Below, in pieces: positions 9,066 to 23,543 of a DNA stretch of 64,000 nt (positions are counted from its first letter, which is position 1; each line of letters starts with the position of its first letter). Source of the DNA: a virus. Its lineage: Duplodnaviria; Heunggongvirae; Uroviricota; Caudoviricetes. Below the pieces are notes generated by a model, which worked only from the letters and a program-made list of their open reading frames with translations, ran no database searches and was not told where the DNA came from. Location of the stretch: the IMG/VR virus record IMGVR_UViG_3300018411_000017. One strand, given 5' to 3'. The translations under genes and the position numbers were made by a program.

Positions 9066-9485
9066 TTATGGTTTTACAAATAAAACTCCATGTTTTGCAT
9101 TGTCTCTAAATCTAACCAATCTAACAAATCCCCTAAGTATTACCAAGCAAGGAATTTCTCTTTTTTGTTTTTTTGATTTAGACCAAAAAAAAGCGGATTG
9201 ACCTACTCCGTTAGTGATTGATTCAAAACAATATCCAGATAACGGAAGCTTTAGGCATTTATTTTCATCATTTAAATCTATTAAATTATTTGCAAAATAA
9301 CAGTATTCATTTTTAATAACATATGGGGATTTGCTTAATAATTCAAGTTCTGATTCAGTTGGCAATCTTTTAATTCCTGTATTCTCCATGAGCATAGCAT
9401 CCTTATAAAAATATAAATCTTTTCCAACATCTTTATAGAAATCAATGCCAGCTATATTTATTATATAACAATATCCTATTTTCAT
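9066..9485 (-). CDS. family C: FISUMP-like domain protein (no signal peptide)
   Basis: GIKRLPTESELELL ; LKLPLSGYCF ; AFFWSKS ; C-terminal VRLVRF. Confidence 0.55.
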   Translation of the reverse strand: MKIGYCYIINIAGIDFYKDVGKDLYFYKDAMLMENTGIKRLPTESELELLSKSPYVIKNEYCYFANNLIDLNDENKCLKLPLSGYCFESITNGVGQSAFFWSKSKKQKREIPCLVILRGFVRLVRFRDNAKHGVLFVKP

Positions 9486-9901
9486 AACTTATTCATTAAT
9501 AGAAAAGACAATTCAACGTCATAAGCTGCTGCCTGTACTCTTAATTCACGTTTATTTGAAAACGTAAAACATTTATCTCCATCCCCAAATCTATAAAATC
9601 CAGTATCATCGTGAACAATTGAGCTGGCTAACCATCTAAACCCCGTTGGAGGTAGTATTAATCTTTGGCTTGGTATATCAAGATTTTCTAAAGATTCAGC
9701 TATAAGTAAATGATTCTCGCTTATTTTGTGAGGTAATTTCAACAAAGCATTAAAAGCTTCTTCTGTTAATAATTGCATATTATGAGACTTTGCCATCTCT
9801 AAAGTTTCTTCGTAAGAAGATAATCTAAATGCTGTTTTATGGATAAAGAATCCTCCTAATTTAATTGAATTTGGATTTGGATTTTTAGCTTCTATTTTCA
9901 T
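9482..9901 (-). CDS. family C: FISUMP-like domain protein (divergent)
   Basis: QLLTEEAFNALLKL ; LILPPTGFRW. Confidence 0.45.
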   Translation of the reverse strand: MKIEAKNPNPNSIKLGGFFIHKTAFRLSSYEETLEMAKSHNMQLLTEEAFNALLKLPHKISENHLLIAESLENLDIPSQRLILPPTGFRWLASSIVHDDTGFYRFGDGDKCFTFSNKRELRVQAAAYDVELSFLLMNKL

Positions 9902-10332
9902 GGCGTTTTTAATAATATAGGTTGTCCATAAGATGAATCCGAATAAAATATTCTAATTCTATTATCTTTATTAAAACATAAATATGGCTGATTCTCCGTT
10001 GGATTTGGATTAGTGTTTTGTAACCAATAATAGCCGCCTATGTTTTTTCCAATAAATCGTTTTTGATTCAAATGATTATTATAATATCCCAATCTAGGGA
10101 ATTCAATCCTTCTATTTTCATCATCTAACCAAATACCTTGTTCTGCTATATAAAGACTAGTTGAGTCGTGTTTCCTTGGAAGAGTTAAAAGCAGTTCCAT
10201 TTCATGTTTACTAATCAATACTTTTCCAACAGACTCGGCGTACTCAATAGCTTGCTTATAGTTGAAATAGCCATTAATGGGTTTTTGATCAAACTTAATC
10301 CCTTTTATCTCAAATTGTTTTCTTATTTTCAT
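9898..10332 (-). CDS. family C: FISUMP-like domain protein
   Basis: EFPRLGYYNNH ; GGYYWLQN. Confidence 0.5.
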   Translation of the reverse strand: MKIRKQFEIKGIKFDQKPINGYFNYKQAIEYAESVGKVLISKHEMELLLTLPRKHDSTSLYIAEQGIWLDDENRRIEFPRLGYYNNHLNQKRFIGKNIGGYYWLQNTNPNPTENQPYLCFNKDNRIRIFYSDSSYGQPILLKTP

Positions 10333-10346
10333 AATTATTGTTGGTT

Positions 10347-10793
10347 TTATAAATCTGAAACAAAACGAACTGTAAATTTATATTCGCGAAAATACCTATC
10401 TACACCAGGGATTGAATCGCTATCAAAATATAGATGAGTTGCATTGTCTTCTGATAAAGAAGAATCAGCCCAATATATTCCAATGTCATAAACGCCATAA
10501 TTAGGCGTAATACTTTTGGGAGGGCAATACCCGCCAGAAGGTAAAAACAATGAATAGTTTGTTTTTAAATCTCTAACATCATTTGCATACCAAATTCCAC
10601 GATTATCTTTATCATATAAATAATGTAATTTATTAAGATTGCGAAATTCTTCTGGAGTTGGCAGTCTCTTATTTCTTATATAAGCTTGATGCATCGCATC
10701 TTTATGAGTGAAATGAGCTATATCTCCATCTTTAAAATTAGATATATCCCATTTCAATCCATTTAATATAACATAATCACCTCCTATCTTCAT
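10347..10793 (-). CDS. family C: FISUMP-like domain protein
   Basis: ILNGLKWDISNF ; KRLPTPEEFRNL ; SLFLPSGGY ; IYWADSS ; C-terminal FTVRFVSDL. Confidence 0.6.
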   Translation of the reverse strand: MKIGGDYVILNGLKWDISNFKDGDIAHFTHKDAMHQAYIRNKRLPTPEEFRNLNKLHYLYDKDNRGIWYANDVRDLKTNYSLFLPSGGYCPPKSITPNYGVYDIGIYWADSSLSEDNATHLYFDSDSIPGVDRYFREYKFTVRFVSDL

Positions 10794-11053
10794 AATCTAT
10801 AATAATTGTTTTCACTTTTATAAAAGAAGAATGTAGGATTCCCTTTAATTTGACATATCTGCAACCATTCCGTTTGGAATAAAGTGTAAGAATAAGCCAC
10901 AGACACATATGTATTGTCAGTTATATCATATAAAAAAACTTCTTTACTAGGAATATTTACCATTAGAAACATTACCTCATGTTTTTCTATGGTTTCCTGT
11001 TTTACGCAACTAGTTAATAAAACAAGTAATAATAATATGACTAAATGTTTCAT
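10790..11053 (-). CDS. small lipoprotein
   Basis: 87 aa; signal peptide with lipobox LLTSC. Confidence 0.45.
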   Translation of the reverse strand: MKHLVILLLLVLLTSCVKQETIEKHEVMFLMVNIPSKEVFLYDITDNTYVSVAYSYTLFQTEWLQICQIKGNPTFFFYKSENNYYRL

Positions 11054-11065
11054 GTTTTTAATATT

Positions 11066-11482
11066 TTAATAAATTGATTTTATTATAAAATTACGATCGT
11101 TACCTTTTGGTATAAGTTTATTTAACTTTTCTTTATCTTCTATATCACAAACGCTTGTTTGGCTTCTTTTAAGATTGTTAATAGATGAATTAATTTCTAA
11201 AACTATTCTGCTTTCATTATCATCATATACAGATCTATATATATTTAATAGCAAATAATCCGAATTGGAAATAGAAAAAGGTTTATTTACTATTTCTAAC
11301 AACGCAACTTTATAAGTTCCATATGGAATATCTAATCTATGAAAATATTGGAATAAACAACCTGCGCTATATGGATCATGAGCAATTCCGAATTCAGGTT
11401 TGCAAAACTTAATTCTTAACATTTTAAAATGGTCATAATATATATAAGCTTTTATGCAATTATTTGAATTTATTATTTTCAT
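11066..11482 (-). CDS. hypothetical protein, family G (1 of 2)
   Basis: 138 aa; KAYIYYDHFKMLRIKFCKPE resembles the N-terminus of the neighbouring ORF. Confidence 0.5.
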   Translation of the reverse strand: MKIINSNNCIKAYIYYDHFKMLRIKFCKPEFGIAHDPYSAGCLFQYFHRLDIPYGTYKVALLEIVNKPFSISNSDYLLLNIYRSVYDDNESRIVLEINSSINNLKRSQTSVCDIEDKEKLNKLIPKGNDRNFIIKSIY

Positions 11483-11880
11483 AAAACAATTTTAAATCTA
11501 TAATATTTTCCTGTCTTAAATCCGAATTCATCGTATATATCAAAATAAGTAGTCCAATTAGAAAATAGAGAAAAAGCATTTCTGGCTTGAAATTTTATCC
11601 GATTAAGAGATGCACTAAAAATAGATATCATAAATTCCGTTTCTATAAGAAATGTCAAATCGTCCATTTCAATTAACAATACCTCTCTACATTCTCCTGG
11701 CAAAATTTGAGGGAAAAAGTAATTATCAATACTCTGATATGGACCGTTATAACAATGGTATACTATTTGACCTTCGCCAACCGATCTACATTCCGGTTTA
11801 TAATAAGATATACTTAGATTATTATTTGAATTTCTATATAAATACATCTTTAACCCATTACCTTTTGATGATATTTTCAT
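11479..11880 (-). CDS. hypothetical protein, family G (2 of 2)
   Basis: 133 aa; KMYLYRNSNNNLSISYYKPE. Confidence 0.5.
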   Translation of the reverse strand: MKISSKGNGLKMYLYRNSNNNLSISYYKPECRSVGEGQIVYHCYNGPYQSIDNYFFPQILPGECREVLLIEMDDLTFLIETEFMISIFSASLNRIKFQARNAFSLFSNWTTYFDIYDEFGFKTGKYYRFKIVL

Positions 11881-12317
11881 AACTTTATTAATTTTAAAGA
11901 CAATTGATATTCCATATTAAAGGATGGAGCAGAATCGGCATGAATAAATCCGTTTGATAACATAATAAAGCAACATTTTCCTTCTTCTTTTTCTTTTGCC
12001 CAATAAAATCCACTTCCTAATGCTATTGGAGGCCTATTTTGTTGCCTATAACCTTGTATTGTGTTAAACCTCAAACATTTGTTAGGATCAGATAAATATT
12101 CTTTTTTTGGAGATAGATGACACCATCCATCTTCATATATTCTTTGCAGCTTAATAAGACCTGAAAAATCCTCCTTATCTGGTATTCTGGCATCAAATCT
12201 TTCGGCTAGAAATAAAGCTTCTTCATAAAGCATATGAGGACATCCTTTTAATGTAATGTCTTCTTTAATCCAAAAAAAACCATTTATTTCAATTGTCTCA
12301 ACTTTTTTTATTTTCAT
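11877..12317 (-). CDS. family C: FISUMP-like domain protein
   Basis: INGFFWIKEDI ; ARIPDKEDFSGL ; GFYWAKE ; C-terminal LSLKLIKL. Confidence 0.55.
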   Translation of the reverse strand: MKIKKVETIEINGFFWIKEDITLKGCPHMLYEEALFLAERFDARIPDKEDFSGLIKLQRIYEDGWCHLSPKKEYLSDPNKCLRFNTIQGYRQQNRPPIALGSGFYWAKEKEEGKCCFIMLSNGFIHADSAPSFNMEYQLSLKLIKL

Positions 12318-12757
12318 AATTTAATTAGCTTTAAACTAAATAAAAAATCCTGTACTCGAATATTTGATGGTGATTGGACTTTGGATTCATTGAAAAATAA
12401 ATAAGATCCATATTCATTTTCTATATCATCCAAATCGCACCAATAACAGGCTGTTGTTGCATTACTATCATCCGATTTTACATATATCCATCCATTAAAT
12501 TTAAATCTTAAAACATTGAATCCTTTTTTGAGTTCCTCATTTGTTTCAGCAAAAATCCATTCGCTTGTTTCTGGAATAAATTTATGAGATAATTTTAATA
12601 GTTTTTTATAATCGTCTGAATTCGGAATTCTTGCTTTATACTTTTTAGCCAAATGTAAAGCTTCTATATTAGAAACATTAACTCGCCCTTCAAATGATAT
12701 GTCTTCTTTAATCCACGTAATACCATTTAAGGTTATACAACTTTGTCCTATTTTCAT
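12314..12757 (-). CDS. family C: FISUMP-like domain protein
   Basis: LNGITWIKEDI ; ARIPNSDDYKKL ; CYWCD ; C-terminal FSLKLIKL. Confidence 0.55.
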   Translation of the reverse strand: MKIGQSCITLNGITWIKEDISFEGRVNVSNIEALHLAKKYKARIPNSDDYKKLLKLSHKFIPETSEWIFAETNEELKKGFNVLRFKFNGWIYVKSDDSNATTACYWCDLDDIENEYGSYLFFNESKVQSPSNIRVQDFLFSLKLIKL

Positions 12758-12837
12758 TACTTTTCTTTATTAAAAACCCCTCAAGCTATTACTAGCATTG
12801 AAGGGTTAAACAATTTATATAATAGAATTGAAGTTTT

Positions 12838-13065
12838 TTATTCACTTATATATGCCATAGATTTGATATCTTTCAAAAATCCTATTTCAATGCCATATAC
12901 GCCATCTTCTGTTATTTCCGATACATCTTCTATTAAGCTTTCCGAATCATCCTCATACAGCCTATAAATAGGCTCTACGTTTAAACTGTATATCTTTCTA
13001 GCGCAATCAGTGTTTATGACTTTCCAAACAAACTCATCGTCTTTAGTTATTTTTAAATTCAACAT
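12838..13065 (-). CDS. hypothetical protein
   Basis: 75-aa acidic ORF. Confidence 0.4.
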   Translation of the reverse strand: MLNLKITKDDEFVWKVINTDCARKIYSLNVEPIYRLYEDDSESLIEDVSEITEDGVYGIEIGFLKDIKSMAYISE

Positions 13066-13070
13066 AATAA

Positions 13071-13358
13071 TTATTTTATAGTATCACCAACAGATATTGA
13101 ATTATATTCGTAATCTGTAATAATTAAATGTACATAAGTAAAGTTATTACCCAATGTTATTGCACCGGATTGCTTTTTACTTAATACGACGAATCCAGTA
13201 AAACAAGCCAAAGGTCTATTCTTTATTATTCTTATAGTATCAGTCTCAATTTTTGTAGATTTTATTGGTTTTTTACCTTCTTGAAATCCAATATAATAGC
13301 TTATTCCAGCTATCATAGATGTCAATATTAAAATTGTTATTAATATTCCTGTTTTCAT
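13071..13358 (-). CDS. membrane-anchored small protein
   Basis: 95 aa; N-terminal TM or signal segment. Confidence 0.45.
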   Translation of the reverse strand: MKTGILITILILTSMIAGISYYIGFQEGKKPIKSTKIETDTIRIIKNRPLACFTGFVVLSKKQSGAITLGNNFTYVHLIITDYEYNSISVGDTIK

Positions 13359-13359
13359 A

Positions 13360-13560
13360 TTATGTAAATAAATTTATTCTATTTTTTAAACATTCAAGAT
13401 AAATCCCCATAGCACCGGATTGCATGGTTAACAAGCTTTTATAAATTGGATCTATTTGATTTGATTTTTCACATATTAAAAAATCATTCAATTCATTTAA
13501 TTTCAATTCCAACTCATATGCTTCATTTATTAAATCTTTTTTGATAATAAATTTTTCCAT
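13360..13560 (-). CDS. hypothetical protein
   Basis: 66-aa ORF. Confidence 0.4.
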   Translation of the reverse strand: MEKFIIKKDLINEAYELELKLNELNDFLICEKSNQIDPIYKSLLTMQSGAMGIYLECLKNRINLFT

Positions 13561-13582
13561 ATTTTATTATTTTAAAATAACC

Positions 13583-13686
13583 AGTGGAGAGAGTAGGAAT
13601 CGAACCTACATAAGTTGTCAAGCTTAATACATCTAGGGTTGACAATCCCATCATTGAGTATTTGCGTTTCCACTCCGCCATCTCCC
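13583..13686 (-). tRNA. atypical long tRNA-like gene (about 104 nt, class-II-like, anticodon unresolved)
   Basis: Minus strand: acceptor GGGGAGA/TCTCTCC (Ser-like), D-arm GCG-GAGTGGAAA-CGC, T-arm GTAGG-TTCGATT-CCTAC. The central region carries a perfect 7-bp hairpin TTGTCAA(17 nt)TTGACAA and is too long for a standard tRNA. Confidence 0.4.
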
Positions 13687-13761
13687 CTTTAAAACACTTT
13701 TTAATTATAATGGCAAAAAGTGCAAAATCCTTAGTCGAAAACGCAAAAGAAGGTTTATCGA

Positions 13762-13947
13762 CTAATAATTATCTGTAATAGATTTTTCTAATTCACGTTT
13801 TAGATAAACTCTAAGCTTTTTGGATATTATCTTTCTAATTCGTTTCTTGCGATCAGATTGATAATCTCGTGTGCCCCATGTTTTCGTACGAAAAACAGCT
13901 AATCCAGAATTATCTATTGTACTAATTAACTTTTTACCGGTTGCCAT
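13762..13947 (-). CDS. small basic protein, possibly ribosomal protein bL33-like
   Basis: 61 aa; MATGKK..FRTKT..R....KLRVYLKRELEK has the same residue spacing as bL33 (MAKG..FYTTTKN.R..KLEL.K..HVIYKE.K); call is tentative. Confidence 0.3.
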   Translation of the reverse strand: MATGKKLISTIDNSGLAVFRTKTWGTRDYQSDRKKRIRKIISKKLRVYLKRELEKSITDNY

Positions 13948-13973
13948 AATTTAAATTGAGTGTTTTTTGTAAA

Positions 13974-14228
13974 TTAATTATAGTCAATTATACGAACCCA
14001 GAGATAAAAAGGCTTATCAAAGCTGATATGTTCTCCATATTCGTTAACCGTCCCAGGCGCATAGTGAGCGTGTCCAAAGTCCACTTCTATAGTGTAATAA
14101 TCAATTTCATAATATCCTTTTTTATATCCAACAATTGGATAAAATTTGCCATTAAACTCGAATTTAATTGAGTCTCCTATTTTATATTTAAAATAATCAT
14201 CGATTCTTTTTTTTTTCAGTATTTTCAT
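13974..14228 (-). CDS. family E small protein (1 of 2)
   Basis: 84 aa; MKILKKKRIDDYFKYKIGD...IVGYKKGYY, paralog of 23562..23813. Confidence 0.5.
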   Translation of the reverse strand: MKILKKKRIDDYFKYKIGDSIKFEFNGKFYPIVGYKKGYYEIDYYTIEVDFGHAHYAPGTVNEYGEHISFDKPFYLWVRIIDYN

Positions 14229-14514
14229 CAGTTAGTATTTCAAAATGCACACATTTTCCATCAGATCTTTCTAAACAACTACATTGGCCTCTAACTTCTT
14301 TTATTTTTTCTATAGTACAATTGTATAATATGTTATTTATTTTAAAATAGCATTTATCACAAGATAAACCAGGAGATTCTAAACAAATAAATGGAAGCCC
14401 ATCATAAGTAAAAACTTCTCCTATTTCTCTTTCTTCTTTGAACATTTTTAATATTTTCATATCATATTTTTTCAACAAAACATACAAACATGAAATCTTC
14501 TCTTCCACCGGCAT
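14197..14514 (-). CDS. family D Cys-rich mini-protein
   Basis: Internal MKILKMFKEEREIGEVF is the probable start; Cys pattern C..C..C..C. Confidence 0.5.
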   Translation of the reverse strand: MPVEEKISCLYVLLKKYDMKILKMFKEEREIGEVFTYDGLPFICLESPGLSCDKCYFKINNILYNCTIEKIKEVRGQCSCLERSDGKCVHFEILTDENTEKKKNR

Positions 14515-14689
14515 AGCATGATCCAGTTATATCTTCATCTCTATTTCCACAGTCTAAACTATAAGATGTATTAAAAATGCACATTTCACATGATGAGGAA
14601 TCCGCTTGAACACATTCCAATAATTTTCCTTTATGATAAAAAGTCTCTCCGATTTTTCTTTCCTGAACTTTTTTTTGTTCTATTTTCAT
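14462..14689 (-). CDS. family D Cys-rich mini-protein
   Basis: 75 aa; IGETFYHKGKLLECV...CEMCIF...C...GSC...FMFV. Confidence 0.55.
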   Translation of the reverse strand: MKIEQKKVQERKIGETFYHKGKLLECVQADSSSCEMCIFNTSYSLDCGNRDEDITGSCYAGGREDFMFVCFVEKI

Positions 14690-14910
14690 AATATTTTTTT
14701 ATATATTATATAGCACTTATCGTCTCTAAAAGTTTCACTGCAAGAGTGAAAAAAAGGAAGCCAAGGCTTTGCACAACTAGCACGCATAGACCCTTCATTT
14801 CTTTGAAAGCAACATCCATTACATCTATTTTCTTTCGATGCTCTATCTAATACTCCATATCTATCGCCTTGAAATCTTATTACTTCTTTATATTTAGGAA
14901 GTATTTTCAT
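14686..14910 (-). CDS. family D Cys-rich mini-protein
   Basis: 74 aa; Cys-rich (CNGCCF..C..C). Confidence 0.5.
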   Translation of the reverse strand: MKILPKYKEVIRFQGDRYGVLDRASKENRCNGCCFQRNEGSMRASCAKPWLPFFHSCSETFRDDKCYIIYKKIL

Positions 14911-15146
14911 TCTGTTACTTCTTTAAAAATAACATTCTCTTTATCTCCTCTGGAAGTCCCAACGCAAGAACCTAATACTTTTCTTCCTGGTTTAAGACAC
15001 ACTATGCCTTTACTATAAAAACAACACCCAGAGCATACATAAGTATTAGGATTGTACTTTTGACATGTATATTTTTTTCCGCGATATTCAATGGTATCTC
15101 CTATTCTAATATAATAATCTTCTAAAGGTATTTTTTCTATTTTCAT
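14907..15146 (-). CDS. family D Cys-rich mini-protein
   Basis: 79 aa; IGDTIEYRGKKYTC...CSGCCF..C...GSC...VIF. Confidence 0.55.
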   Translation of the reverse strand: MKIEKIPLEDYYIRIGDTIEYRGKKYTCQKYNPNTYVCSGCCFYSKGIVCLKPGRKVLGSCVGTSRGDKENVIFKEVTE

Positions 15147-15367
15147 TATCTTACTTTTTTAAAAATAACTCCTGTTAAATCATATCTACTTATATTAGAG
15201 CAATATCCAGTTATATGTTTAATATTATTGCAATTTATTTCCATATCAGAGAAGTAACAGTCGATACAGCTATACGCTTCTTCGACACATTCTAATTGGG
15301 TCCCATCTTCTAATGTAAACCTATCTCCAATAGAATGCTTGTCTTTATTTATTTTAGATATTTTCAT
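15146..15367 (-). CDS. family D Cys-rich mini-protein
   Basis: 73 aa; IGDRFTLEDGTQLECV..CIDCYF..C...GYC...VIF. Confidence 0.55.
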   Translation of the reverse strand: MKISKINKDKHSIGDRFTLEDGTQLECVEEAYSCIDCYFSDMEINCNNIKHITGYCSNISRYDLTGVIFKKVR

Positions 15368-15560
15368 ATTGTTTCTTTTTTTTACTGTTTTTCCAAGATC
15401 TAAAACCTGTTTTAAAGCGAATTCTTTTAGGCCTATTACATCCTCTATGTAACTTACATATAGTACAAAAAAATTCTTTTTGTTTTATGTAAGTCTTATA
15501 ACAAACATTAAAAACGTGTCTATTATCAGTTGTTTCATAATTGTATTTTAGTCTATGCAT
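15354..15560 (-). CDS. small basic Cys-containing protein
   Basis: 68 aa; FCTICKLHRGCNRPKR; lysine/arginine-rich. Confidence 0.4.
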   Translation of the reverse strand: MHRLKYNYETTDNRHVFNVCYKTYIKQKEFFCTICKLHRGCNRPKRIRFKTGFRSWKNSKKKKQYENI

Positions 15561-15675
15561 AATATTTTGTTTTAGATAAAATAAATAAAGAGTGATACAT
15601 TGTGTACCACTCTTTTCACATATTAGTCTTCACAGATTTGTATGCGACTAAACTTATAAAATATGAAAAATATAG

Positions 15676-15747
15676 TACCGCGTAGAGGAGTCAAACCTCT
15701 TTTCTGCATTTGAGAGATGCAAGTCCTAATCGGTAGACGAACGCGGC
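15676..15747 (-). tRNA. tRNA, anticodon CTC (Glu-type), non-canonical D/T loops
   Basis: Manual fold on minus strand: acceptor GCCGCGT/ACGCGGT (6 WC pairs plus G-U); D-stem GTCT/GGAC with D-loop ACCGATTA (no GG); anticodon stem TGCAT/ATGCA with loop CTCTCAA; 4-nt variable loop; T-arm AGAGG-TTTGACT-CCTCT (U in place of C56). Confidence 0.55.
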
Positions 15748-16194: not shown

Positions 16195-16195
16195 G

Positions 16196-16821: not shown

Positions 16822-17212
16822 TTTCGTCTGTTTTAGTTTTATCGACTTTAACGCTATCTTTAAAACAAAAATCAGGAACCTTAATTATTGGCCTATCAAA
16901 CACTTTAGAATGAAAAGCTCCAACAAACCAGTTACTTTTTAATTCTGACTGATCTTCGAGAATCCGATTGACTTCATATAAATTCTTAACATCTTTTAGA
17001 GAAAGATGATTGTTGGATATTTTATAATTTAAATCGTCATAATTATCTTTGATAAATGTACGATTATCATTAGTGACGCTAAACGTTCCTACTATTATAA
17101 AGAAAAATATAATAGTTAATGCCAAAAACAATAAACCAAAGCAATCGTTATCTGTTATTGTACAAATTATAAATAAACAAAGGCATACTGTAAATATAAT
17201 TATTATTCCCAT
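16799..17212 (-). CDS. membrane protein
   Basis: 137 aa with two N-terminal TM segments. Confidence 0.45.
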   Translation of the reverse strand: MGIIIIFTVCLCLFIICTITDNDCFGLLFLALTIIFFFIIVGTFSVTNDNRTFIKDNYDDLNYKISNNHLSLKDVKNLYEVNRILEDQSELKSNWFVGAFHSKVFDRPIIKVPDFCFKDSVKVDKTKTDENELDTCK

Positions 17213-17241
17213 ATCTGTTTTAATTATTATTTTTTTATATT

Positions 17242-17700
17242 TTAAACATCTTGAACAAGTCTAATGCTTAACATTTGACTAAAACTCCCATATTCTAAAT
17301 CATGGTTTTTATCTCTAAACCATAAATAATATGGAGTATTTCCTTTATTAGTGCTAGCAGACCAATATCGGCCTTTAAAGCCTATATCAAACCCTTCATT
17401 TGGTGCAAGTATCGAAGAACTCCCCATGGCTGGAAGAAATAAAGACTTACTAGTACCTAATTCGTTATGTTTATTAGCGAACCATACGCCTTTTCGCTCT
17501 CCGTCCCATTGATGGCACAAGTCAAATAAATCTGATAATTCTTCGTTCGTAGGTAATCTCTTATTCTTATGATTGATTAATTCTACAGCTTCATCTCGAG
17601 TGAAATAAATTTTATTTAAATAAAGTTTATTGTTTATAGAGAAATTTTCAGTATCCCATAAAATTCCATTTAATTCTATCCTTCTATCACCTATTTTCAT
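17242..17700 (-). CDS. family C: FISUMP-like domain protein
   Basis: ELNGILWDTENF ; KRLPTNEELSDLF ; SLFLPAMG ; RYWSAST ; C-terminal LSIRLVQDV. Confidence 0.6.
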   Translation of the reverse strand: MKIGDRRIELNGILWDTENFSINNKLYLNKIYFTRDEAVELINHKNKRLPTNEELSDLFDLCHQWDGERKGVWFANKHNELGTSKSLFLPAMGSSSILAPNEGFDIGFKGRYWSASTNKGNTPYYLWFRDKNHDLEYGSFSQMLSIRLVQDV

Positions 17701-18062
17701 ACTTTAAAATTTGAAATTTTCGAATATTCATTATTTTGTCTTTCTATAGACACTTTAACGTGGTCCCAACAAAGGGTTAGTGCTTTTAGGTATTTAATAT
17801 CATATTCTGGTAGTTTCTTTTTACCACTTAAATAATTATCAAACTTATAATCATCAGAACTTCTTTCTTCTGTTATAACTTTATAGAATCCAGGGTGCCA
17901 TTCTGTTAACATTATTTTATTTTCATTCGCTTTTATTGTTAGATATAAATCATCTTCTACTTTGATTTTTAAATTCCAATAAAAGTGATAATGTGATTTA
18001 ATCCATTTACAAATAGACATCCAATTCTCGATTAAACATATATCTATTTCTTTACCTTTCAT
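17697..18062 (-). CDS. hypothetical protein
   Basis: 121-aa ORF. Confidence 0.45.
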   Translation of the reverse strand: MKGKEIDICLIENWMSICKWIKSHYHFYWNLKIKVEDDLYLTIKANENKIMLTEWHPGFYKVITEERSSDDYKFDNYLSGKKKLPEYDIKYLKALTLCWDHVKVSIERQNNEYSKISNFKV

Positions 18063-18073
18063 TTCTTTATGTT

Positions 18074-18565
18074 TTAAATGTCTTTCACCAACCTAAGAGG
18101 AAACTTTAATCCAGCTACATACATGACATTACTCATATTTACTTTATTAAACCAAAAGCAATTTTTTTCACCAAATGGATAAATATTCGCAATTCTCCAA
18201 TATATACCGATATTGTATTTTGAATGTATTTTATTATCGCAACAATCGAACCACCCTTCAAATGGCATATGTATAAACATATTCTCATCTAAATCTTTAT
18301 CAATATAAAATTTAGCTCCATTATTTAGTCCTTTATTGTTGTCTGCGACCATTTCTAGTTCAAATAAATCTTTTACATCATCCTTATTCGGCAGTCTTTT
18401 ACCTAAACTATTAGCTATTTCCATAGCCTCCTCATAAGTAAAATACTTATGATCTCCTACAATGGTATTTGTTAAATCCCATATTGTATTATTGATTCTA
18501 ATCCCTTTAGATATTTTCATCGACAAATTTATTTGTAATATTAAAATAAGCTTTAATTTTATCAA
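18074..18565 (-). CDS. family C: FISUMP-like domain protein
   Basis: Internal MKISKGIRINNTIWDL is the probable start; KRLPNKDDVKDLF ; IYWRIAN ; C-terminal PLRLVKDI. Confidence 0.55.
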   Translation of the reverse strand: MIKLKLILILQINLSMKISKGIRINNTIWDLTNTIVGDHKYFTYEEAMEIANSLGKRLPNKDDVKDLFELEMVADNNKGLNNGAKFYIDKDLDENMFIHMPFEGWFDCCDNKIHSKYNIGIYWRIANIYPFGEKNCFWFNKVNMSNVMYVAGLKFPLRLVKDI

Positions 18566-18836
18566 AGTCAGGAAATCCTGAAGCTCTTATCCTACTACCT
18601 ACTATAGTATCGGCTGAAATATTATTATATAAATAATCTATTAATTTTGAAAAAGCTTCTTCTTCGGAGTCACCCGTAAATATTTCACTATATTTAAGGC
18701 CTACCAACCAATTACTAGATATATACCATTTTTTATTATATTTATCAAAATAAGTACATGGATAAATCTTAGAATTAGCTTCTTCAATAAAACTTAAAAA
18801 ATCATTTAATGCTATTTTCTTCTTTAATATTTTCAT
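18507..18836 (-). CDS. hypothetical protein
   Basis: 109-aa ORF starting MKILKKK. Confidence 0.45.
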   Translation of the reverse strand: MKILKKKIALNDFLSFIEEANSKIYPCTYFDKYNKKWYISSNWLVGLKYSEIFTGDSEEEAFSKLIDYLYNNISADTIVGSRIRASGFPDFDKIKAYFNITNKFVDENI

Positions 18837-19052
18837 AATATAAAAATTAAATAATAAAAGGCGTGTTGTTAAACCAAAAGATGCTTTACTAGCAATTATG
18901 AAGATAATTTACCCACTACTAATAATACATTATACAATTATTTATTCTGTCTTTTTCAACTTATAATTGCGTGATTGTATAACTATATTAGTTCTTCTAC
19001 GTGTTCTACTCTTTAAACGATGGACACTTCCAATCCTACGTACCTTTTATTA

Positions 19053-19529
19053 TTAAATTAAATTACACATTTCTTGTAATGCATCATTCAAAGCTTCTTC
19101 ATAAGATGAAAAATCTTTTCCGCATACACCATCATAAGGAGGTCGCTCTATTTCATTTTGTGGATCTAATTGCACATCTATGATCTTATAAGTATAACCC
19201 GCAAATGTTGGTATAATGGCTGGATGTAACTTATGTTTGTCTCTGAACCATTTCTGAGCTACGTGTAATTCTAGCAATGGAACGACAATCTGTCTTTTAA
19301 TGGCTCCATTATCTAGTTTTTCTTCATAGCTATCACAGAAAGGGTCATAAGACTCTATTTCTTCCCATTCAGTCCAATTGGTTGGATCTTTTCTTTCTTC
19401 AGGATTCATTGATTCACAATGAAAGTTGATTCTACGTAGAATCATTTTGCAAGGTTTATTATAACCTTTTGCTTTAATTCTTTTTGCAGTTTCAAAGCTT
19501 GCATAACCATTAAATGTCAAGTTTGTCAT
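19053..19529 (-). CDS. hypothetical protein
   Basis: 158-aa ORF. Confidence 0.5.
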   Translation of the reverse strand: MTNLTFNGYASFETAKRIKAKGYNKPCKMILRRINFHCESMNPEERKDPTNWTEWEEIESYDPFCDSYEEKLDNGAIKRQIVVPLLELHVAQKWFRDKHKLHPAIIPTFAGYTYKIIDVQLDPQNEIERPPYDGVCGKDFSSYEEALNDALQEMCNLI

Positions 19530-19555
19530 AAGTGTTTATTTTATAAATTATTAAG

Positions 19556-19627
19556 TACTCAAACCAGGAGTTGAACCTGGGCTTCATGGATATAAGCCGT
19601 GCGTGCTAACCGTTACACCATTTGAGC
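19556..19627 (-). tRNA. tRNA, anticodon TAT (Ile-type, AUA decoder)
   Basis: Manual fold on minus strand: acceptor GCTCAAA/TTTGAGT; D-arm GTGT-AACGGTTA-GCAC; anticodon stem CACGG/CCATG (one C-A mismatch) with loop CTTATAT (U33, A37); 4-nt variable loop; T-arm CCAGG-TTCAACT-CCTGG. Confidence 0.55.
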
Positions 19628-20010
19628 GTTTGCCTTTTACACCTAAAACTAATTATACACCGTACGCCTACATAGTAGATTACGATTAATCAGAAACTGG
19701 TGTTCTCGAGGTCTTGAAAAGTTATTGAGTTTTTTAACCTAAAAACAGCTTACGAATATAGTATAAATGGGATTTAATATTATTTAATATTATTACCAAA
19801 CACATCAAGTATGTTACTATACTTAAGCTGAAAAAACTGACATTAATTATTAGTTTTTACTCCCTTAGTCATGCCCCTAAGCAGGCTTTGTAATCATAGG
19901 TCTTCGTAAGCCTATAATTGGTTTCATGCACAATATAGTATTTCAACTATATTTACTAAATAGATAGCTTTAAGCCTCTATTCACTCCAGTGCACTAGAA
20001 CATTATATAA

Positions 20011-20049
20011 CCATGTTTCTCAATAGTCCAAGAAACATGGGCGTTTTTA
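20011..20049 (+). terminator. strong hairpin followed by T-run (intrinsic-terminator-like, plus-strand orientation)
   Basis: CCATGTTTCT-caatagtcca-AGAAACATGG then GCGTTTTTA; lies in an ORF-free gap inside the minus-strand gene block. Confidence 0.4.
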
Positions 20050-20272
20050 CAATATATCATGAACACAACGGTCTAGATGTTTGATCATTGTGTTTAATCC
20101 ATAATATAGAAAAACTATACTTTTCTTTTATTCTCCAGAGCTTTAATGATGTTTGCAACCATTACTAAAGATGTTGGATAAGAGGATCTATCTCTTGCCA
20201 GGACTTTATATCCACACTATTATCCTAACTTTAATAGTGTGAATCTAGTTTTAAAGGATCTAGAAACCTAAT

Positions 20273-20620
20273 CTATAAATCTAATCGCTCTAATATCGGA
20301 GTTAATTTATCTTTCAACTCAGGATAATAGCGATACATGGTCGTTCTTGCATTCAATGATTTATCAGGTTTTGTTAAAGAACTGCACTCCCAATCTATTA
20401 TCATTGAAGTATAGTTTTTCCAAACAATGCTTTCAGGATGATGAGAGCTGAATTTGCGGTGAATCTTTTGTACGTATTTATATGGCATAATTAATCTAAG
20501 CCAAGGCTTATACCAATCATGAAATAAATGATACGGTTTCCAAACACCTAACAACACAGCGGTCATATTAAAAGCCAACCAATGAGCAAACCAATAAGAA
20601 AAAGACGATTTTTTATACAT
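20273..20620 (-). CDS. hypothetical protein
   Basis: 115 aa, Trp/Tyr-rich. Confidence 0.45.
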   Translation of the reverse strand: MYKKSSFSYWFAHWLAFNMTAVLLGVWKPYHLFHDWYKPWLRLIMPYKYVQKIHRKFSSHHPESIVWKNYTSMIIDWECSSLTKPDKSLNARTTMYRYYPELKDKLTPILERLDL

Positions 20621-20625
20621 AACAG

Positions 20626-21087
20626 TTATTCTAAATCTTTAACACAGCGAACTGTAAATTGATAATCGCCACTAATATAACCTTTTGAGATATAATCTCT
20701 AGCTCCACAAAAATAAAAACGATTACCTCTGATTGCTTCATCTCTTCCAGATCCCCAAAATTGAAAAGAATTAGGTTCATCTATAATATCACATTCATAA
20801 CGGCTTTTATAGCCTAAAAATGGTAAAAATAAAGATTGATCTGTTTTTAAAAGTTTTTTCTTTTCAGCAAACCATATTCCACGTAACTCCTTGTCTTCAA
20901 TTCTATATAAATTTCGTAATTGATCAATATCAAAACGATCTGGAAGTCTTTTCCCTTCTTGCAAAGCCAATCTTGTGGCTTCTTCATGCGTAAAATGGAC
21001 TTGACCAGAAACAGTTAAATTAGATCTGTCCCAAGCTGTGCCATTTAATATGATAATATCGTTTTCGGGTTTTTTAACAATCTTCAT
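20626..21087 (-). CDS. family C: FISUMP-like domain protein
   Basis: ILNGTAWDRSNL ; KRLPDRFDIDQL ; SLFLPFLGY ; C-terminal FTVRCVKDLE (canonical FISUMP end motif). Confidence 0.65.
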   Translation of the reverse strand: MKIVKKPENDIIILNGTAWDRSNLTVSGQVHFTHEEATRLALQEGKRLPDRFDIDQLRNLYRIEDKELRGIWFAEKKKLLKTDQSLFLPFLGYKSRYECDIIDEPNSFQFWGSGRDEAIRGNRFYFCGARDYISKGYISGDYQFTVRCVKDLE

Positions 21088-21405
21088 TTAAGGTAACCTT
21101 TCAATTATAACATTCGACTTAGCCCACTCCCATGTATCATAGCTAATAAAACCCCAATTTGGATTGTCTTCATCTGGATCAAATGTGTAATATTCAAACG
21201 TATAATTTTTATGCATACCCCAGTCACAAGATTCATATATTTCTTGAGCTAATTTCGTATCAATAGCTTGTCCAAAGTTATTAAGCAAAGTAACTCGATA
21301 TATTGGCTTGCCATGATTTCTATCAAAATCAACTTTTCGATCACATCCATGACAACTGCAAATTAAAAGGACAAGCGTTATTAACAATAATATCTTTTTT
21401 ATCAT
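21088..21405 (-). CDS. lipoprotein
   Basis: 105 aa; signal peptide with lipobox LLICSC. Confidence 0.5.
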   Translation of the reverse strand: MIKKILLLITLVLLICSCHGCDRKVDFDRNHGKPIYRVTLLNNFGQAIDTKLAQEIYESCDWGMHKNYTFEYYTFDPDEDNPNWGFISYDTWEWAKSNVIIERLP

Positions 21406-21731
21406 TTTTCTTTCATGTTTTTAAGAATGTTATAGACTTTAATCTTGTTATATATTCTAGACACTAAAATATATATCAGACAAAACATTATAAATATAGA
21501 TTCAATGGTTATAGCAAACCAAGAGAATAAACCAGATAGTATAACCAATATCCATTGAATATGGCTAGTGTAATACAAATCTTTGATTCCTAATAGACTT
21601 ACCATAATACTCATGGAAATGATAGAACCAATTCCATAAAGTAATATGCCAAATAAAATTAACATTATCATACTATAATCTCCATAAAAGATATAACATG
21701 TAAATAAGAAATATCGTAGCAAAAATGCCAA
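21402..21731 (-). CDS. membrane protein
   Basis: 109 aa, multi-TM. Confidence 0.4.
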   Translation of the reverse strand: MAFLLRYFLFTCYIFYGDYSMIMLILFGILLYGIGSIISMSIMVSLLGIKDLYYTSHIQWILVILSGLFSWFAITIESIFIMFCLIYILVSRIYNKIKVYNILKNMKEK

Positions 21732-22032
21732 AAGAAACGAAGAATCCTATTGAAAGTATTGTATCTATAACAGGATAAACTTTTATTTCTGGAATTTGGC
21801 ATATTACAAATGGTACAAATAATGTTGCGGCTATTTTAGCTGACACGACAGCTATACGTAAAAAGAATTCAGCTATTTTAGTCATAAAGCTTATCAATAT
21901 CATAGTCAAATAAATAATCAAATAAATTACCGATCTTATGAAACCAATTCTTTTTGGGTTTAAATCGGAAGTATTTATTTGGATCTTCTTCAGGATATGG
22001 ATATACTCTTCGAACTTTCCAACCTTTTTCAC
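21673..22032 (-). CDS. membrane protein (overlaps next ORF; one of the two is probably shorter)
   Basis: 119 aa, multi-TM; 155-nt overlap with 21878..22267. Confidence 0.35.
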   Translation of the reverse strand: MKKVGKFEEYIHILKKIQINTSDLNPKRIGFIRSVIYLIIYLTMILISFMTKIAEFFLRIAVVSAKIAATLFVPFVICQIPEIKVYPVIDTILSIGFFVSFGIFATIFLIYMLYLLWRL

Positions 22033-22267
22033 TGTAAATCTTCATTAACTCTGATACAACATCTTCAGACATATCTTTTTCAATACTTATAAAATCTGGA
22101 GATTTTTTAGCTAAATCCAATATTTCATAATCATAAATGTCAACCCATCCTTTTTTATATTTTCTTACTAGTAAAAGGTTGATAGTTTCAATTATCAGGC
22201 TAGGATCAGTTTTTTTAAGCGACTTAACCTCATCAGGTGTTAACGCTTGAGATCTACTAATTTTCAT
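21878..22267 (-). CDS. hypothetical protein
   Basis: 129 aa starting MKISRSQ. Confidence 0.45.
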   Translation of the reverse strand: MKISRSQALTPDEVKSLKKTDPSLIIETINLLLVRKYKKGWVDIYDYEILDLAKKSPDFISIEKDMSEDVVSELMKIYSEKGWKVRRVYPYPEEDPNKYFRFKPKKNWFHKIGNLFDYLFDYDIDKLYD

Positions 22268-22273
22268 AATAAT

Positions 22274-22645
22274 TTATCTTATTTCTTCAAAATCAACACC
22301 AACAGAATAATAACCATTTGACTCTCCGTACCATCTGATTGTTACATCTCCTTTAAAGGTAGACAATTTATAAAAAGTCCAGCAATAAAGATCATCGTGG
22401 TATTCTTTGTTAACATCTATAGGATCTTCGTCGCTCGTTTCTTTTTCAGCTAATAATATAGGAGAGTTTAGTAAGTCGTTAATATCTCCACAGACATCTT
22501 CTATAGAAACTCTTTCGCAACAGTCTTGGCTATGTTTCATCTCAAATCTACGTCCTTCAGACGTCGTGAAAATGACTTCAGCAGAGTCGTCTTCCAATCC
22601 ATCAATAGATGTAATCGTAAGTCCTTTTAATATACTAAAATTCAT
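22274..22645 (-). CDS. hypothetical protein
   Basis: 123-aa acidic ORF. Confidence 0.45.
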   Translation of the reverse strand: MNFSILKGLTITSIDGLEDDSAEVIFTTSEGRRFEMKHSQDCCERVSIEDVCGDINDLLNSPILLAEKETSDEDPIDVNKEYHDDLYCWTFYKLSTFKGDVTIRWYGESNGYYSVGVDFEEIR

Positions 22646-22648
22646 AAT

Positions 22649-22873
22649 TCATTTTTGTTTAAGTTCAACAAATATAATATCTTGTTTATCCGATCGACTC
22701 TCCCGGCCACATGGCCCAGTGAAATTATTTGGGCACTCATCCATATTTTGATCTGTAAAAATACATTTTTCACAACTGTAATTTTCTGATTCTACAGAAA
22801 CACATTGCAGCATCTTTAACCCAAAAGCAAACACCTCTCCAATGTTATATTCTGTTTTCTGTTTTATTTTCAT
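22649..22873 (-). CDS. family D Cys-rich mini-protein
   Basis: 74 aa; IGEVFAFGLKMLQCV..CEKCIF..C...GPC...IIFV. Confidence 0.55.
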   Translation of the reverse strand: MKIKQKTEYNIGEVFAFGLKMLQCVSVESENYSCEKCIFTDQNMDECPNNFTGPCGRESRSDKQDIIFVELKQK

Positions 22874-22880
22874 ATTATTT

Positions 22881-23099
22881 TTACTCTTCTGATTTCACAA
22901 AAATAACATCAGTTTTATCATCTCTTTTCCGCTTACCACATAATCCAATAACTTCCGTATATTTTTCATGGCAATTAATATCACAAAAAAAACAACCAAC
23001 ACAAAAATTCTCTTTTTCACTAGTAACGCATTTTAATCTTATTAGTCCAAACTGAAATGTTTCTCCAATTTGAAACTGATTTTTCTTATTTATCTTCAT
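22881..23099 (-). CDS. family D Cys-rich mini-protein
   Basis: 72 aa; IGETFQFGLIRLKCV..CVGCFFC..C...GLC...VIFV. Confidence 0.55.
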   Translation of the reverse strand: MKINKKNQFQIGETFQFGLIRLKCVTSEKENFCVGCFFCDINCHEKYTEVIGLCGKRKRDDKTDVIFVKSEE

Positions 23100-23105
23100 A
23101 ACCCA

Positions 23106-23543
23106 TTATTCTAATATACATATTACACTGTGCCCGTATTTTATATTATAGTCATGAGTGAATAGCCGGTGTTTGCCAAAGGTTAAAGAAGTCTTATAAT
23201 ATTCATATTTGTCAGAAGAACTCCAATAATATCCATATTGATTAAATTCTTTTATTATCGTAGAAGGAGGATCTATAAAACCATCAGCAGGTAAAAATAA
23301 AGACTTATCAGATGCAATATCTTCTGGATTTTCTGCGAACCACATACCATTTTTTGTATCGTCCCATAAGTTCGGAAGATTAATCAAATCCTCAAACTCC
23401 TCTTTAGTAGGGAGACGTCTATTTGAACTATTGAGAATGTCAATCGCTTGTTGATATGTGAAATAAGTTTGCCCATGAACCTCAAGAGCTATTGTGCTCC
23501 ATTTTAAACCATTTAAGATAACATGTGTTTTTTTTATTTTCAT
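23106..23543 (-). CDS. family C: FISUMP-like domain protein
   Basis: ILNGLKWSTIAL ; RRLPTKEEFEDLINL ; SLFLPADGF ; YYWSSS. Confidence 0.65.
   Translation of the reverse strand: MKIKKTHVILNGLKWSTIALEVHGQTYFTYQQAIDILNSSNRRLPTKEEFEDLINLPNLWDDTKNGMWFAENPEDIASDKSLFLPADGFIDPPSTIIKEFNQYGYYWSSSDKYEYYKTSLTFGKHRLFTHDYNIKYGHSVICILE

Follow-up and report, generated by a model that had tools for sequence, protein, structure and literature searches.

The stretch of DNA analysed here (64 kb in total; hereafter, the window) belongs to a phage, as indicated by its genes for a portal, a split large terminase, GroEL and a 2155-aa fibre. The portal was 41–45% identical to those of uncultured human-gut phages and 22–25% identical to those of Crassvirales. 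The source genome is that of a crAss-related large gut-type phage of about 158 kb. Ten minus-strand ORFs of one protein family (139–153 aa) span positions 9066–23543, at the coordinates given in a preliminary description of this DNA. They are listed below, each named after its left coordinate. The E-values refer to the A5 HMM, which was built only from outside relatives (50 clade members) and serves as a surrogate for PF26707 (DUF8237).

9066–9485, minus strand: c9066, 139 aa; derived copy with a 4-nt overlap with c9482 (E = 2.9e-14; 129 bits with the family HMM)
9482–9901, minus strand: c9482, 139 aa; most divergent of the ten (E = 2.2e-8)
9898–10332, minus strand: c9898, 144 aa (E = 5.3e-21)
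10347–10793, minus strand: c10347, 148 aa; canonical copy with the motifs ILNGLKW, KRLPTPEE and SLFLPSGG (E = 1.8e-39)
11877–12317, minus strand: c11877, 146 aa (E = 1.8e-16)
12314–12757, minus strand: c12314, 147 aa (E = 1.4e-19)
17242–17700, minus strand: c17242, 152 aa; canonical copy, structure modelled
18074–18520, minus strand: c18074, 148 aa from the ATG/MKI start (E = 1.5e-24)
20626–21087, minus strand: c20626, 153 aa; canonical copy (E = 1.2e-38; 20 bits with TIGR02145)
23106–23543, minus strand: c23106, 145 aa; copy nearest to the clade consensus (E = 3.1e-49)

All ten copies have an intact reading frame and their own ATG start codon; for c18074, the ATG/MKI start at 18520 was preferred over a TTG at 18565. 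Four genes form one run (9066–10793) and c11877 and c12314 form a tandem pair (11877–12757), whose members are reciprocal best matches inside the window (33% identity). The remaining four are singletons, and unrelated genes lie between. Thus, the copies are in tandem, as had been described, in the run and the pair, but not in the case of the singletons. Upstream, c10347 shares 4 nt with a small leader-bearing gene (10790–11053), and c20626 adjoins another leader-bearing gene (21088–21405). A protein identical to that of c20626 (P0001) was found on contigs of up to 158 kb.

The ten genes are situated in a minus-strand arm of ~31 kb whose non-structural genes are small, tightly packed and in many cases overlapping. 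This arm contains 75 small genes, including at least eight paralogue families, and its transcription runs opposite to that of the structural genes; the fibre, terminase and portal are encoded on the other strand. The nearest structural gene is at least 16 kb from the family genes, and the GC skew changes sign near 31–32 kb. The MKI start, which had been regarded as a trait of the family, is common in the arm generally (28 of 75 genes). A sigma-70 promoter scan gave a result no better than chance, and it is from gene position only that we infer early expression of the family genes.

When all ORFs of at least 40 aa in the window were searched with the family HMM, exactly these ten were retrieved (next-best ORF, E = 0.046), and all-versus-all BLAST placed them in a single cluster. 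Pairwise identity among the ten was 16–37% (median 25%). The copies are therefore strongly diverged, as had been proposed, rather than near-identical recent duplicates, and they are true paralogues that were duplicated anciently. The preliminary description had assigned a shared, ordered set of motifs to all ten. This set (ILNGxxW, KRLPTxEE, SLFLPxxG, YWxxS and VRxVxD) is complete only in c10347, c17242, c20626 and c23106; the motifs are degenerate in the other six copies, and TVRCVKD occurs only in c20626. Residues M1, K2, I3, L, G and F do not vary among the ten, and no invariant polar residue common to all copies was found. The domain begins at about residue 5, without a preceding anchor or adaptor domain in any copy.

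We examined the relationship of these proteins to the FISUMP family by HMM searches. TIGR02145 (curated cut-off, 41.65 bits) matched three of the ten copies at 22.9, 20.0 and 19.1 bits, and PF09603 (cut-off, 33.9 bits) matched one at 12.7 bits. PF07603 (gathering score, 34.9 bits) gave 23.6 bits for c17242 and 19.4 bits for c23106, with the other eight copies unmatched. In total, direct matches to any of these models, all below the cut-offs, were restricted to three copies, and seven had none. By the curated thresholds, none of the ten thus belongs to TIGR02145, the family suggested earlier, or to PF09603. The proposed relationship to FISUMP holds instead at the level of the C-type-lectin (CLec)-fold superfamily that contains FISUMP, Lcl_C (DUF1566) and DUF8237. 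The A5 HMM detected all ten copies (E = 3e-49 to 2e-8). Further, hhalign of the ten-copy profile against secreted FISUMP/Lcl_C domains, cut from proteins passing the Pfam gathering scores, yielded 99.1% probability (E = 4e-19, 126 columns). A family profile search of 1.84 billion proteins returned 2498 relatives, and the sampled matches were genuine Fib_succ_major/Lcl_C proteins exceeding the Pfam gathering scores. Among the 50 outside relatives, 42 matched TIGR02145 at E ≤ 0.01, 32 matched Lcl_C and 29 matched Fib_succ_major. Precomputed PF26707 matches are present for many outside relatives; the orthologues retrieved for four window copies had no precomputed Pfam match on record. The best outside matches of the copies were 26–43% identical (43% for c23106) and mostly leaderless, and no copy was close to any bacterial lipoprotein.

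The AF2 monomer models had pLDDT values of 81.7 and 86.3, the latter for c9482, in whose model the strands and helices follow one another as in that of c17242. The predicted topology is that of the CLec fold, in which N-terminal strands and two helices are followed by a C-terminal sheet that includes a long loop region, and the models match the solved C-terminal domain of Lcl. We concluded that the ten proteins are small, single-domain CLec-fold proteins of a clade that links DUF8237, Lcl_C (DUF1566) and FISUMP (TIGR02145/PF09603).

The absence of a signal peptide, as described previously, was confirmed. None of the ten copies has an N-terminal hydrophobic leader or lipobox according to a Kyte-Doolittle heuristic (not SignalP). 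The maximum 9-residue score within the first 35 residues was at most 1.9 in all ten, while it was 3.5–4.0 in the two abutting phage genes (10790–11053 and 21088–21405) and 2.6–3.4 in lipoprotein relatives. Cytoplasmic location, however, does not follow from the missing leader by itself, as had been assumed, because phage proteins may also leave the cell via lysis or as part of the virion; only gene position raises its probability here. Note that characterised members of the superfamily all act extracellularly, as adhesins, fimbrial tips or phage receptor-binding proteins (PMC11162425, PMC8143477, PMC12386605). All ten copies lack the Cys that precedes the G-W-R/H-x-P-T motif, and only c20626 has the Cys of the C-terminal VRC. 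We rejected these missing cysteines as support for an intracellular role, since the clade as a whole, lipoprotein members included, lacks the first Cys of the secreted-FISUMP pair.

The leaderless architecture had been thought unusual to this phage. In fact, leaderless standalone forms define a whole clade that is already catalogued (Pfam DUF8237; JGI "TIGR02145 family") and occurs in other large phages and a prophage. The other phages sampled hold one to four copies, compared with ten here. In L005/L013 and L012, the clade members neighbour regulatory and nucleotide-metabolism genes, and the member in a Paludibacter prophage lies between the CI repressor and DnaB/methyltransferase genes; in L014, some 5 kb separates the copies from a gene for an 1853-aa fibre. 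Like the window copies, PF26707 proteins are single-domain, leaderless and of the same length class (about 140–190 aa), and their motif order (NGLxWDxENL, GKRLPTKEEF, SLFLPAxGYR, YWSS and FSVRCV) is the same, although six window copies are far from the PF26707 consensus. The match to DUF8237 names the family without explaining its function.

Comparison with the related phages L006, L008 and L010 revealed that copies were gained, lost or truncated. The counterpart of c10347 in L010 is shortened to 118 aa, L006 is without c11877, and a c20626 orthologue was not found in the equivalent region of L010. Further, L010 has an additional paralogue (33% identical) beside the c18074 orthologue. Orthologues of the nine copies for which one was measurable are under purifying selection (dN/dS 0.13–0.47, with similar values for neighbouring genes), and gene-level dN/dS showed no positive selection. 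Values were 0.13–0.16 for c9066, whose orthologues are 81–94% identical, 0.19–0.47 for c9482, 0.29–0.37 for c9898, which has orthologues of only about 65% identity in related phages, and 0.42 for c23106 versus L010. Divergence is unevenly distributed along the protein. Identity among the paralogues fell from 30% in the N-terminal part to 19% in the C-terminal part. Among orthologues of c12314, 22 of 58 C-terminal sites and 9 of 89 N-terminal sites were variable (Fisher p = 1.3e-4). Variability was greater in the C-terminal part in all four orthologue sets measured, and the difference was significant for two of them (p = 1.3e-4 and 0.015) but not for the other two. The faster-changing part comprises the loop after the LFLPxxG strand and the strands that follow, and the N-terminal scaffold changes more slowly.

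The earlier proposal of a diversified binding family is, in our judgement, the best reading of these results. Specifically, the ten genes would constitute a repertoire of soluble CLec binding modules, duplicated and diverged, that is made in the infected cell and is accessory to host takeover or host range; we assign this reading a probability of about 0.5. The principal alternative, which we regard as possible but clearly less probable, is that the proteins act extracellularly, either as accessory adhesins or decoration proteins attached to the virion without a covalent link (to the 2155-aa fibre, for example) or as lectins freed at lysis. They would then bind host surface glycans, and ten copies would widen the host range, much as polyvalent phages do by carrying multiple receptor-binding proteins. 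In favour of this, structural proteins of phages do not require a signal peptide, the highly variable surfaces of Bacteroidales would favour a repertoire, and the L014 copies are near a fibre gene. However, the window genes are on the strand opposite to the structural genes, at a distance from them and within a block of small non-structural genes; the domain starts almost at the N terminus, leaving no anchor or adaptor; and the family HMM does not find the domain in the fibre protein. Further, clade members in four other phage contexts are found in regulatory, replication or early regions.

Three other explanations were far less probable. Bacteroidales hosts encode many FISUMP lipoproteins (TIGR02145), and the ten genes might be decaying or selfish passengers, that is, captured host lipoprotein genes that lost their leaders and are drifting with no role in infection. 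The degenerate motifs in six copies, the presence/absence variation and the truncated copy among related phages would fit such decay, yet we consider it very unlikely, given that the frames are all intact, every copy with an orthologue has a dN/dS value in the range of the neighbouring genes, and even c9482 yields a confident CLec-fold model. Nor is any copy near a bacterial lipoprotein, and the leaderless architecture is kept across a large clade in unrelated phages, unlike a recent capture. About as doubtful is a role as enzymes or cofactor-binding subunits, as in the FGE-sulfatase/EgtB branch of the CLec fold. Those proteins are far larger (260–700 aa) and align only across the shared CLec core, the top structural match and all sequence links point to the non-enzymatic Lcl_C/FISUMP branch, and the ten copies share no invariant polar residues. 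The least probable explanation is a programmed variation system, in which silent cassettes recombine into an expression site or the copies are targets diversified by diversity-generating retroelements (DGRs); the preliminary description had also raised a cassette-style system. Many copies lie within one region, DGRs classically target the CLec fold (PMC5758913), and they occur in crAss-like phages of the epsilon and zeta groups (PMC11054128, PMC12386605). Nevertheless, no TR/VR-type direct repeats were present in the 64-kb window, where the longest family-related repeats were 41–60 nt at 62–83% identity. No reverse transcriptase was found among the window ORFs tested, no reverse transcriptase or recombinase was identified among ORFs of at least 150 aa, and the inverted repeats seen were short, AT-rich and weak, with none meaningful. 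In addition, the copies are complete ORFs with their own start codons, nine are under purifying selection, and their protein identity is too low for homologous recombination. A programmed variation system is thus largely refuted inside the window.

DGR targets share several features with the window copies. DGRs target CLec domains of the DUF1566/Fib_succ_major type, around half of which are short standalone proteins (PMC5758913). The targets compared were category "d"/CLec2 targets such as Legionella LdtA, the Bacteroides "Bacuni" phage targets, the receptor-binding proteins or fibre tips of epsilon and zeta crAss phages, Mtd and TvpA. The fold and superfamily are the same, the varying part is likewise the C-terminal face, and category "d" likewise consists, to about one half, of short DUF1566-only proteins. 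Unlike DGR targets, the window copies are accompanied by no reverse transcriptase among the window ORFs tested and by no template/variable repeat pair in the window; their diversity is germline-fixed as ten paralogues rather than newly generated, and the genes are not beside tail genes.

The nearest solved structure, the C-terminal domain of Legionella pneumophila Lcl (PF07603, PDB 8q4e), is 18% identical in sequence to the phage copies. It is a glycosaminoglycan-binding CLec-like domain that has no disulfides and lacks the Ca2+/carbohydrate motifs (EPN/QPD, WND) of true C-type lectins (PMC11162425). Lcl is secreted, with a collagen-like stalk and a C-terminal domain that is trimeric at the cell surface, whereas the phage proteins are standalone, with neither stalk nor leader. 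[quoted passage not shown] The window family resembles the FISUMP surface lipoproteins of Bacteroidota/Fibrobacterota in its homologous domain, motif order and large paralogous families, but it is phage-encoded and has neither the lipoprotein leader nor the conserved CPxGW...VRC cysteine pair. The genomic setting is comparable with that of large virulent phages (T4-, T5-, SPO1-like and jumbo phages), which share packed, co-oriented small genes, several paralogue families and rapid gain and loss. Multigene families in early or accessory regions are a general phenomenon in such phages and are generally of unknown fold. In contrast, the expanded family in the window has a recognisable ligand-binding fold.

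In the favoured reading, that of an intracellular repertoire, each copy would be a soluble binding module, produced together with the products of other early or accessory genes. The scaffold would be provided by the conserved N-terminal half, which contains strands, two helices and KRLPTxEE, and the variable C-terminal half, the region that DGRs mutate in the CLec fold, would form the putative ligand-binding face. If so, the phage would therefore carry a hard-wired repertoire of about ten specificities, generated by duplication and divergence rather than by a DGR. The targets would most likely be strain-variable host molecules such as envelope glycans, their cytoplasmic precursors or host proteins, for example, defence components. 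The set would serve as host-takeover or host-range accessory factors that are reshuffled as hosts change. A more specific and tentative version is an antibody-like germline panel of intracellular CLec-fold binders, each neutralising or redirecting its own strain-variable target in the host, for example, a defence protein or a pathway for glycan precursors. If this is true, the panel would be a paralogue-based counterpart of DGR diversification, and DUF8237 proteins would form a class of early phage factors for host takeover or anti-defence that is widespread but has so far escaped recognition.

The ten ORFs of the preliminary description were all present, at 9066, 9482, 9898, 10347, 11877, 12314, 17242, 18074, 20626 and 23106 (minus strand, 9066-23543; 139-153 aa, n = 10). 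Each copy was a complete ORF, initiated separately; for 18074 we chose the ATG (MKI) start at 18520, and the alternative TTG upstream would overlap the preceding gene. When an HMM built from the ten copies was run against all stop-to-stop ORFs of at least 40 aa in the window, the same ten were recovered with 114-181 bits (next ORF, E = 0.046), and all-versus-all BLAST of the window ORFs gave a single cluster of ten. In a MAFFT alignment, the copies shared a common framework with a pairwise identity of 16-37% (median 25%). Thus, these ORFs form a genuine and old family, with ten as its full complement in the window. The motif string by which it was first recognized was found in four 'canonical' copies (10347, 17242, 20626 and 23106) but not in the others, and 'TVRCVKD', listed as a common motif, occurred once, in 20626. 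Further, the array described as tandem consists of one run of four copies plus two adjacent ones; the other four stand singly, and unrelated genes lie in between.

Direct hmmscan against Pfam and NCBIfam gave sub-threshold matches in three of the ten copies and none in the other seven; TIGR02145 matched three copies at 19-23 bits (cut-off 41.65), Lcl_C two at 19-24 bits (cut-off 34.9) and PF09603 one at 12.7 bits. Scans of the copies against PHROGs and PADLOC returned no match, and a PDB sequence search with the family profile returned nothing meaningful. An exhaustive search of 1.84 billion representative proteins with the ten-copy profile detected 2498 relatives (436 at E <=1e-10), and ten sampled relatives included multi-domain proteins above the Pfam gathering scores for Fib_succ_major and/or Lcl_C, often with Big_2. 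An HMM of 50 outside relatives, which included no orthologues of the window copies, detected all ten (E from 3e-49 for 23106 to 2e-8 for 9482), and hhalign matched the ten-copy profile to domains cut out of secreted relatives with 99.1% probability (E 4e-19, 126 columns). AlphaFold2 modelled the canonical copy 17242 with a pLDDT of 81.7 and a pTM of 0.77, and the most divergent copy, 9482, with a pLDDT of 86.3; strands and helices are ordered alike in both models. Taken together, the profile search, the outside HMM, hhalign and the models identify the family as a divergent branch of the FISUMP/Lcl_C (DUF1566) superfamily with the C-type-lectin (CLec) fold. Membership in FISUMP, as originally proposed, therefore holds at the level of superfamily homology, whereas the curated cut-offs of each single model were missed.

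The absence of signal peptides was upheld by a heuristic test, in which neither N-terminal hydrophobicity nor a lipobox was seen in any of the ten copies. Leaders were present in two small genes abutting family members.

Leader-bearing small genes abutting family members
10790-11053, minus strand: immediately upstream of the gene for c10347 (the protein of copy 10347; likewise below), 4-nt overlap; LTSC lipobox
21088-21405, minus strand: immediately upstream of the gene for c20626, 0-nt gap; hydrophobic leader

The phage thus puts leaders where they are needed. It is conceivable from this arrangement that the secreted small protein and the leaderless CLec protein form a functional pair in each case (10790-11053 with c10347, 21088-21405 with c20626).

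The leaderless state had been considered exceptional to this phage, but the same architecture occurs across a catalogued clade of leaderless standalone forms. Of the 150 best relatives, about 55 were standalone, with a length of about 140-190 aa and a domain start no later than residue ten; a textbook lipoprotein leader was present in a few close relatives. In a second database search, many standalone relatives had a precomputed match to PF26707 (DUF8237); JGI labels such relatives 'uncharacterized protein (TIGR02145 family)' and NCBI labels them 'DUF1566 domain-containing' or 'hypothetical'. At E <=0.01, 42 of 50 outside members of the clade matched TIGR02145, 32 matched Lcl_C and 29 matched Fib_succ_major, with modest best E-values (4.3e-9 to 5.5e-11), and one member shown in full fell under all cut-offs. 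These matches resemble those of the category 'd' targets of diversity-generating retroelements (DGRs), which were described as 'weak and mixed' (PMC5758913).

Secreted FISUMP domains possess a cysteine pair (C-P-x-G-W...V-R-C), the first cysteine of which is missing throughout the clade, including its lipoprotein members. Loss of the pair was therefore rejected as a sign of cytoplasmic location. Disulfides are likewise absent from Lcl-CTD (PMC11162425). The partners to which clade members are fused (proteins of about 250-360 aa) had no Pfam domain and provided no guilt-by-fusion clue. In an abundant class of relatives, P0267-P0380 (about 305-315 aa), the leaderless CLec domain precedes a conserved C-terminal extension (about 165 aa), which had no Pfam match; judged by this layout, the class is possibly a two-domain version of the same system.

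The window has genes for a portal, a 2155-aa fibre, a tail lysozyme, GroEL, PhoH and two tRNAs, and a large terminase gene interrupted by one for an endonuclease. The portal was 41-45% identical to those of uncultured human-gut phages and 22-25% identical to those of Crassvirales, and the c20626 protein was found on contigs of up to 158 kb. The window is divided into two arms of opposite orientation, and the sign of the GC skew switches near 31-32 kb. The family sits in the minus-strand arm (1-31.5 kb), which comprises about 75 small genes, is 82% coding with many 4-nt overlaps (ATGA), and harbors no structural genes. At least eight paralogous families were found in this arm, and the ten-copy family is the largest.

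Other features of the window
597-4675, 13974-15367, 22649-23099, 23562-23813 and 29521-29966, minus strand: paralogue regions of the arm's other small-gene families (at least seven)
597-2257, minus strand: paralogue family, three copies, 184-191 aa
2702-4675, minus strand: paralogue family, seven copies, 81-99 aa
14197-15367, 22649-23099 and probably also 29521-29966, minus strand: Cys-rich paralogue family, 72-105 aa
Within the minus-strand arm, minus strand: paralogue pairs (83-84 aa; 135-139 aa)
13360-13560: crAss001_48-family protein
15675-15747, minus strand: tRNA-Glu(CTC), among small accessory genes
19555-19627, minus strand: tRNA-Ile(TAT), among small accessory genes
39622-46089, plus strand: 2155-aa fibre, several tail-fibre PHROGs matched
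48264-49853, plus strand: GroEL-type chaperonin (phrog_5725, E 6e-130), adjoining an exonuclease gene
51235-52128 and 53236-54444, plus strand: large terminase in two ORFs, matching the N- and C-terminal parts of phrog_6681
52192-53052, plus strand: endonuclease gene between the terminase ORFs (phrog_4645)

The split terL suggests a putative homing-endonuclease or intron-type insertion. The fibre contains internal sequence repeats (e.g., 40419/42645, 42951/43749 and 42696/43485) and no copy of the family domain. The MKI start, initially regarded as characteristic of the family, was rejected as a family motif: MKI (ATGAAAATA) begins 28 of the 75 genes of the minus-strand arm and MK begins 45 of 75, and neither was found among the 17 genes of the plus-strand arm. 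It looks like an arm-wide translation-start context (ATGAAAATA), independent of family identity. A scan for promoters and terminators performed no better than on shuffled sequences.

Comparison with three related phage contigs (L006, L008 and L010), in which the arm is shared and most of its genes are 85-99% identical, revealed turnover in the family, one of the checks proposed at the outset. Both 11877 and 9066 are absent from L006; L010 has no 20626 orthologue in the corresponding stretch and a truncated 10347; extra divergent paralogues occur in L006 and L010; and the 9898 orthologues are only about 65% identical. The nine copies with orthologues are under purifying selection: dN/dS for family orthologue pairs (Nei-Gojobori) was 0.13-0.47, within the range of neighbouring genes and far from neutrality.

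The scaffold is conserved and its C-terminal face is variable. Identity among paralogues was 30% in the N-terminal part versus 19% in the C-terminal part, which holds an indel-rich, low-confidence loop (residues 96-105 of 17242). Four sets of orthologues at least 75% identical were compared for variable sites: C-terminal enrichment was significant for 12314 (p = 1.3e-4) and 20626 (p = 0.015), and the remaining two showed the same direction without significance. This part corresponds to the region of the fold that is mutated by DGRs (PMC5758913). In BLAST, eight of the ten copies matched a non-orthologous outside clade member better than any sister copy, a count that leaves out P0259, the top outside match of c9066 (92% identical), which is apparently a piece of an orthologue missed by the filter; for c11877, the match to its adjacent partner c12314 was a near tie with the best outside match. 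Duplication is therefore ancient, with the derived copies displaced from a conserved consensus. We regard the identity, fold and evolution of the family as close to certain.

Neither a repeat resembling the template and variable repeats (TR/VR) of a DGR in the 64-kb window nor a reverse transcriptase or recombinase among the window ORFs tested was detected, and inverted repeats in the window were short, weak and AT-rich. Within the 64 kb, variation by a DGR was therefore rejected, as was cassette switching, given also that each copy is a complete, separately initiated ORF. The cassette-style variation system suggested in the preliminary description thus found no support in the sequence of the window.

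Clade members in other phages occupied genomic places comparable to the non-structural arm of the window. One, in L005/L013 (a 107-kb phage), had genes for a nucleoside deoxyribosyltransferase and a transcription regulator as neighbours; in L012, a phage of about 161 kb whose length was constant across several samples, another lay among small genes. An unrelated 30-kb phage-like contig (L014; JGI 3300042603) carried four family members in two adjacent pairs (9511-10420 and 18053-19133), with thioredoxin, DnaJ and ABC-transporter-like genes nearby; small arrays thus occur in other lineages as well. In a prophage of Paludibacter sp. 221 (L015, 7629-10531; GCA_010501035.1), a 176-aa member lay in an early operon, just downstream of a divergent Phage_CI_repr gene and upstream of DnaB and methyltransferase genes. 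Neither megablast of the region nor tblastn of c17242, c23106 and P0131 (a canonical clade member) matched any of 50,697 GenBank phage records, so no deposited phage was usable for annotation transfer. A related-locus search in IMG/VR with the single copy c23106 found none, and a search with a tighter alignment found two viral loci and one genome locus, too few to estimate prevalence in those collections.

On this basis, we propose that the family is a repertoire of soluble binders, a reading to which we assign a probability of roughly 0.5. The copies would be binding modules made in the infected cell, and jointly they may form a hard-wired set of specificities against strain-variable host molecules; duplication would then achieve on the CLec fold what DGRs achieve by mutagenic retrohoming. 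That binding takes place inside the cell is put forward tentatively. The main rival places the action of the proteins outside the cell, where they would be bound to the virion or freed on lysis. All characterised relatives are extracellular, as this would predict, but the position of the genes argues against it and any anchor domain is absent; we consider extracellular action rather unlikely.

In phages, and crAss-like phages in particular, published accounts of the CLec fold place it at the tip of receptor-binding or fibre proteins, as a target of DGRs (PMC8143477, PMC11054128, PMC12386605, PMC7290462). Our literature search found no paper on DUF8237 or PF26707 and none describing a multi-copy, standalone array without a DGR. 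Thus, the fold, the superfamily and the catalogued, uncharacterised clade were already known, and the ten-fold expansion in a phage accessory arm is unreported.

The DUF1566/FISUMP-type CLec fold is the main DGR-hypermutated scaffold in phages and gut bacteria, and to our knowledge hardly any ligand has been assigned to it. This phage lineage diversified the scaffold differently, through duplication into about ten fixed paralogues in a non-structural arm with turnover between close relatives. The crAss-related phages dominate gut viromes. If the copies are intracellular binders, they would represent a new class of host-interaction proteins in these phages and provide a biological handle for the DUF8237 family; if they are instead lectins that dock on the virion or are freed by lysis, they would offer a compact model for the way in which large Bacteroidales phages deal with variable capsules and surfaces. 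In both cases, ten natural variants of a small, confidently modelled domain constitute a ready-made set for ligand screening.
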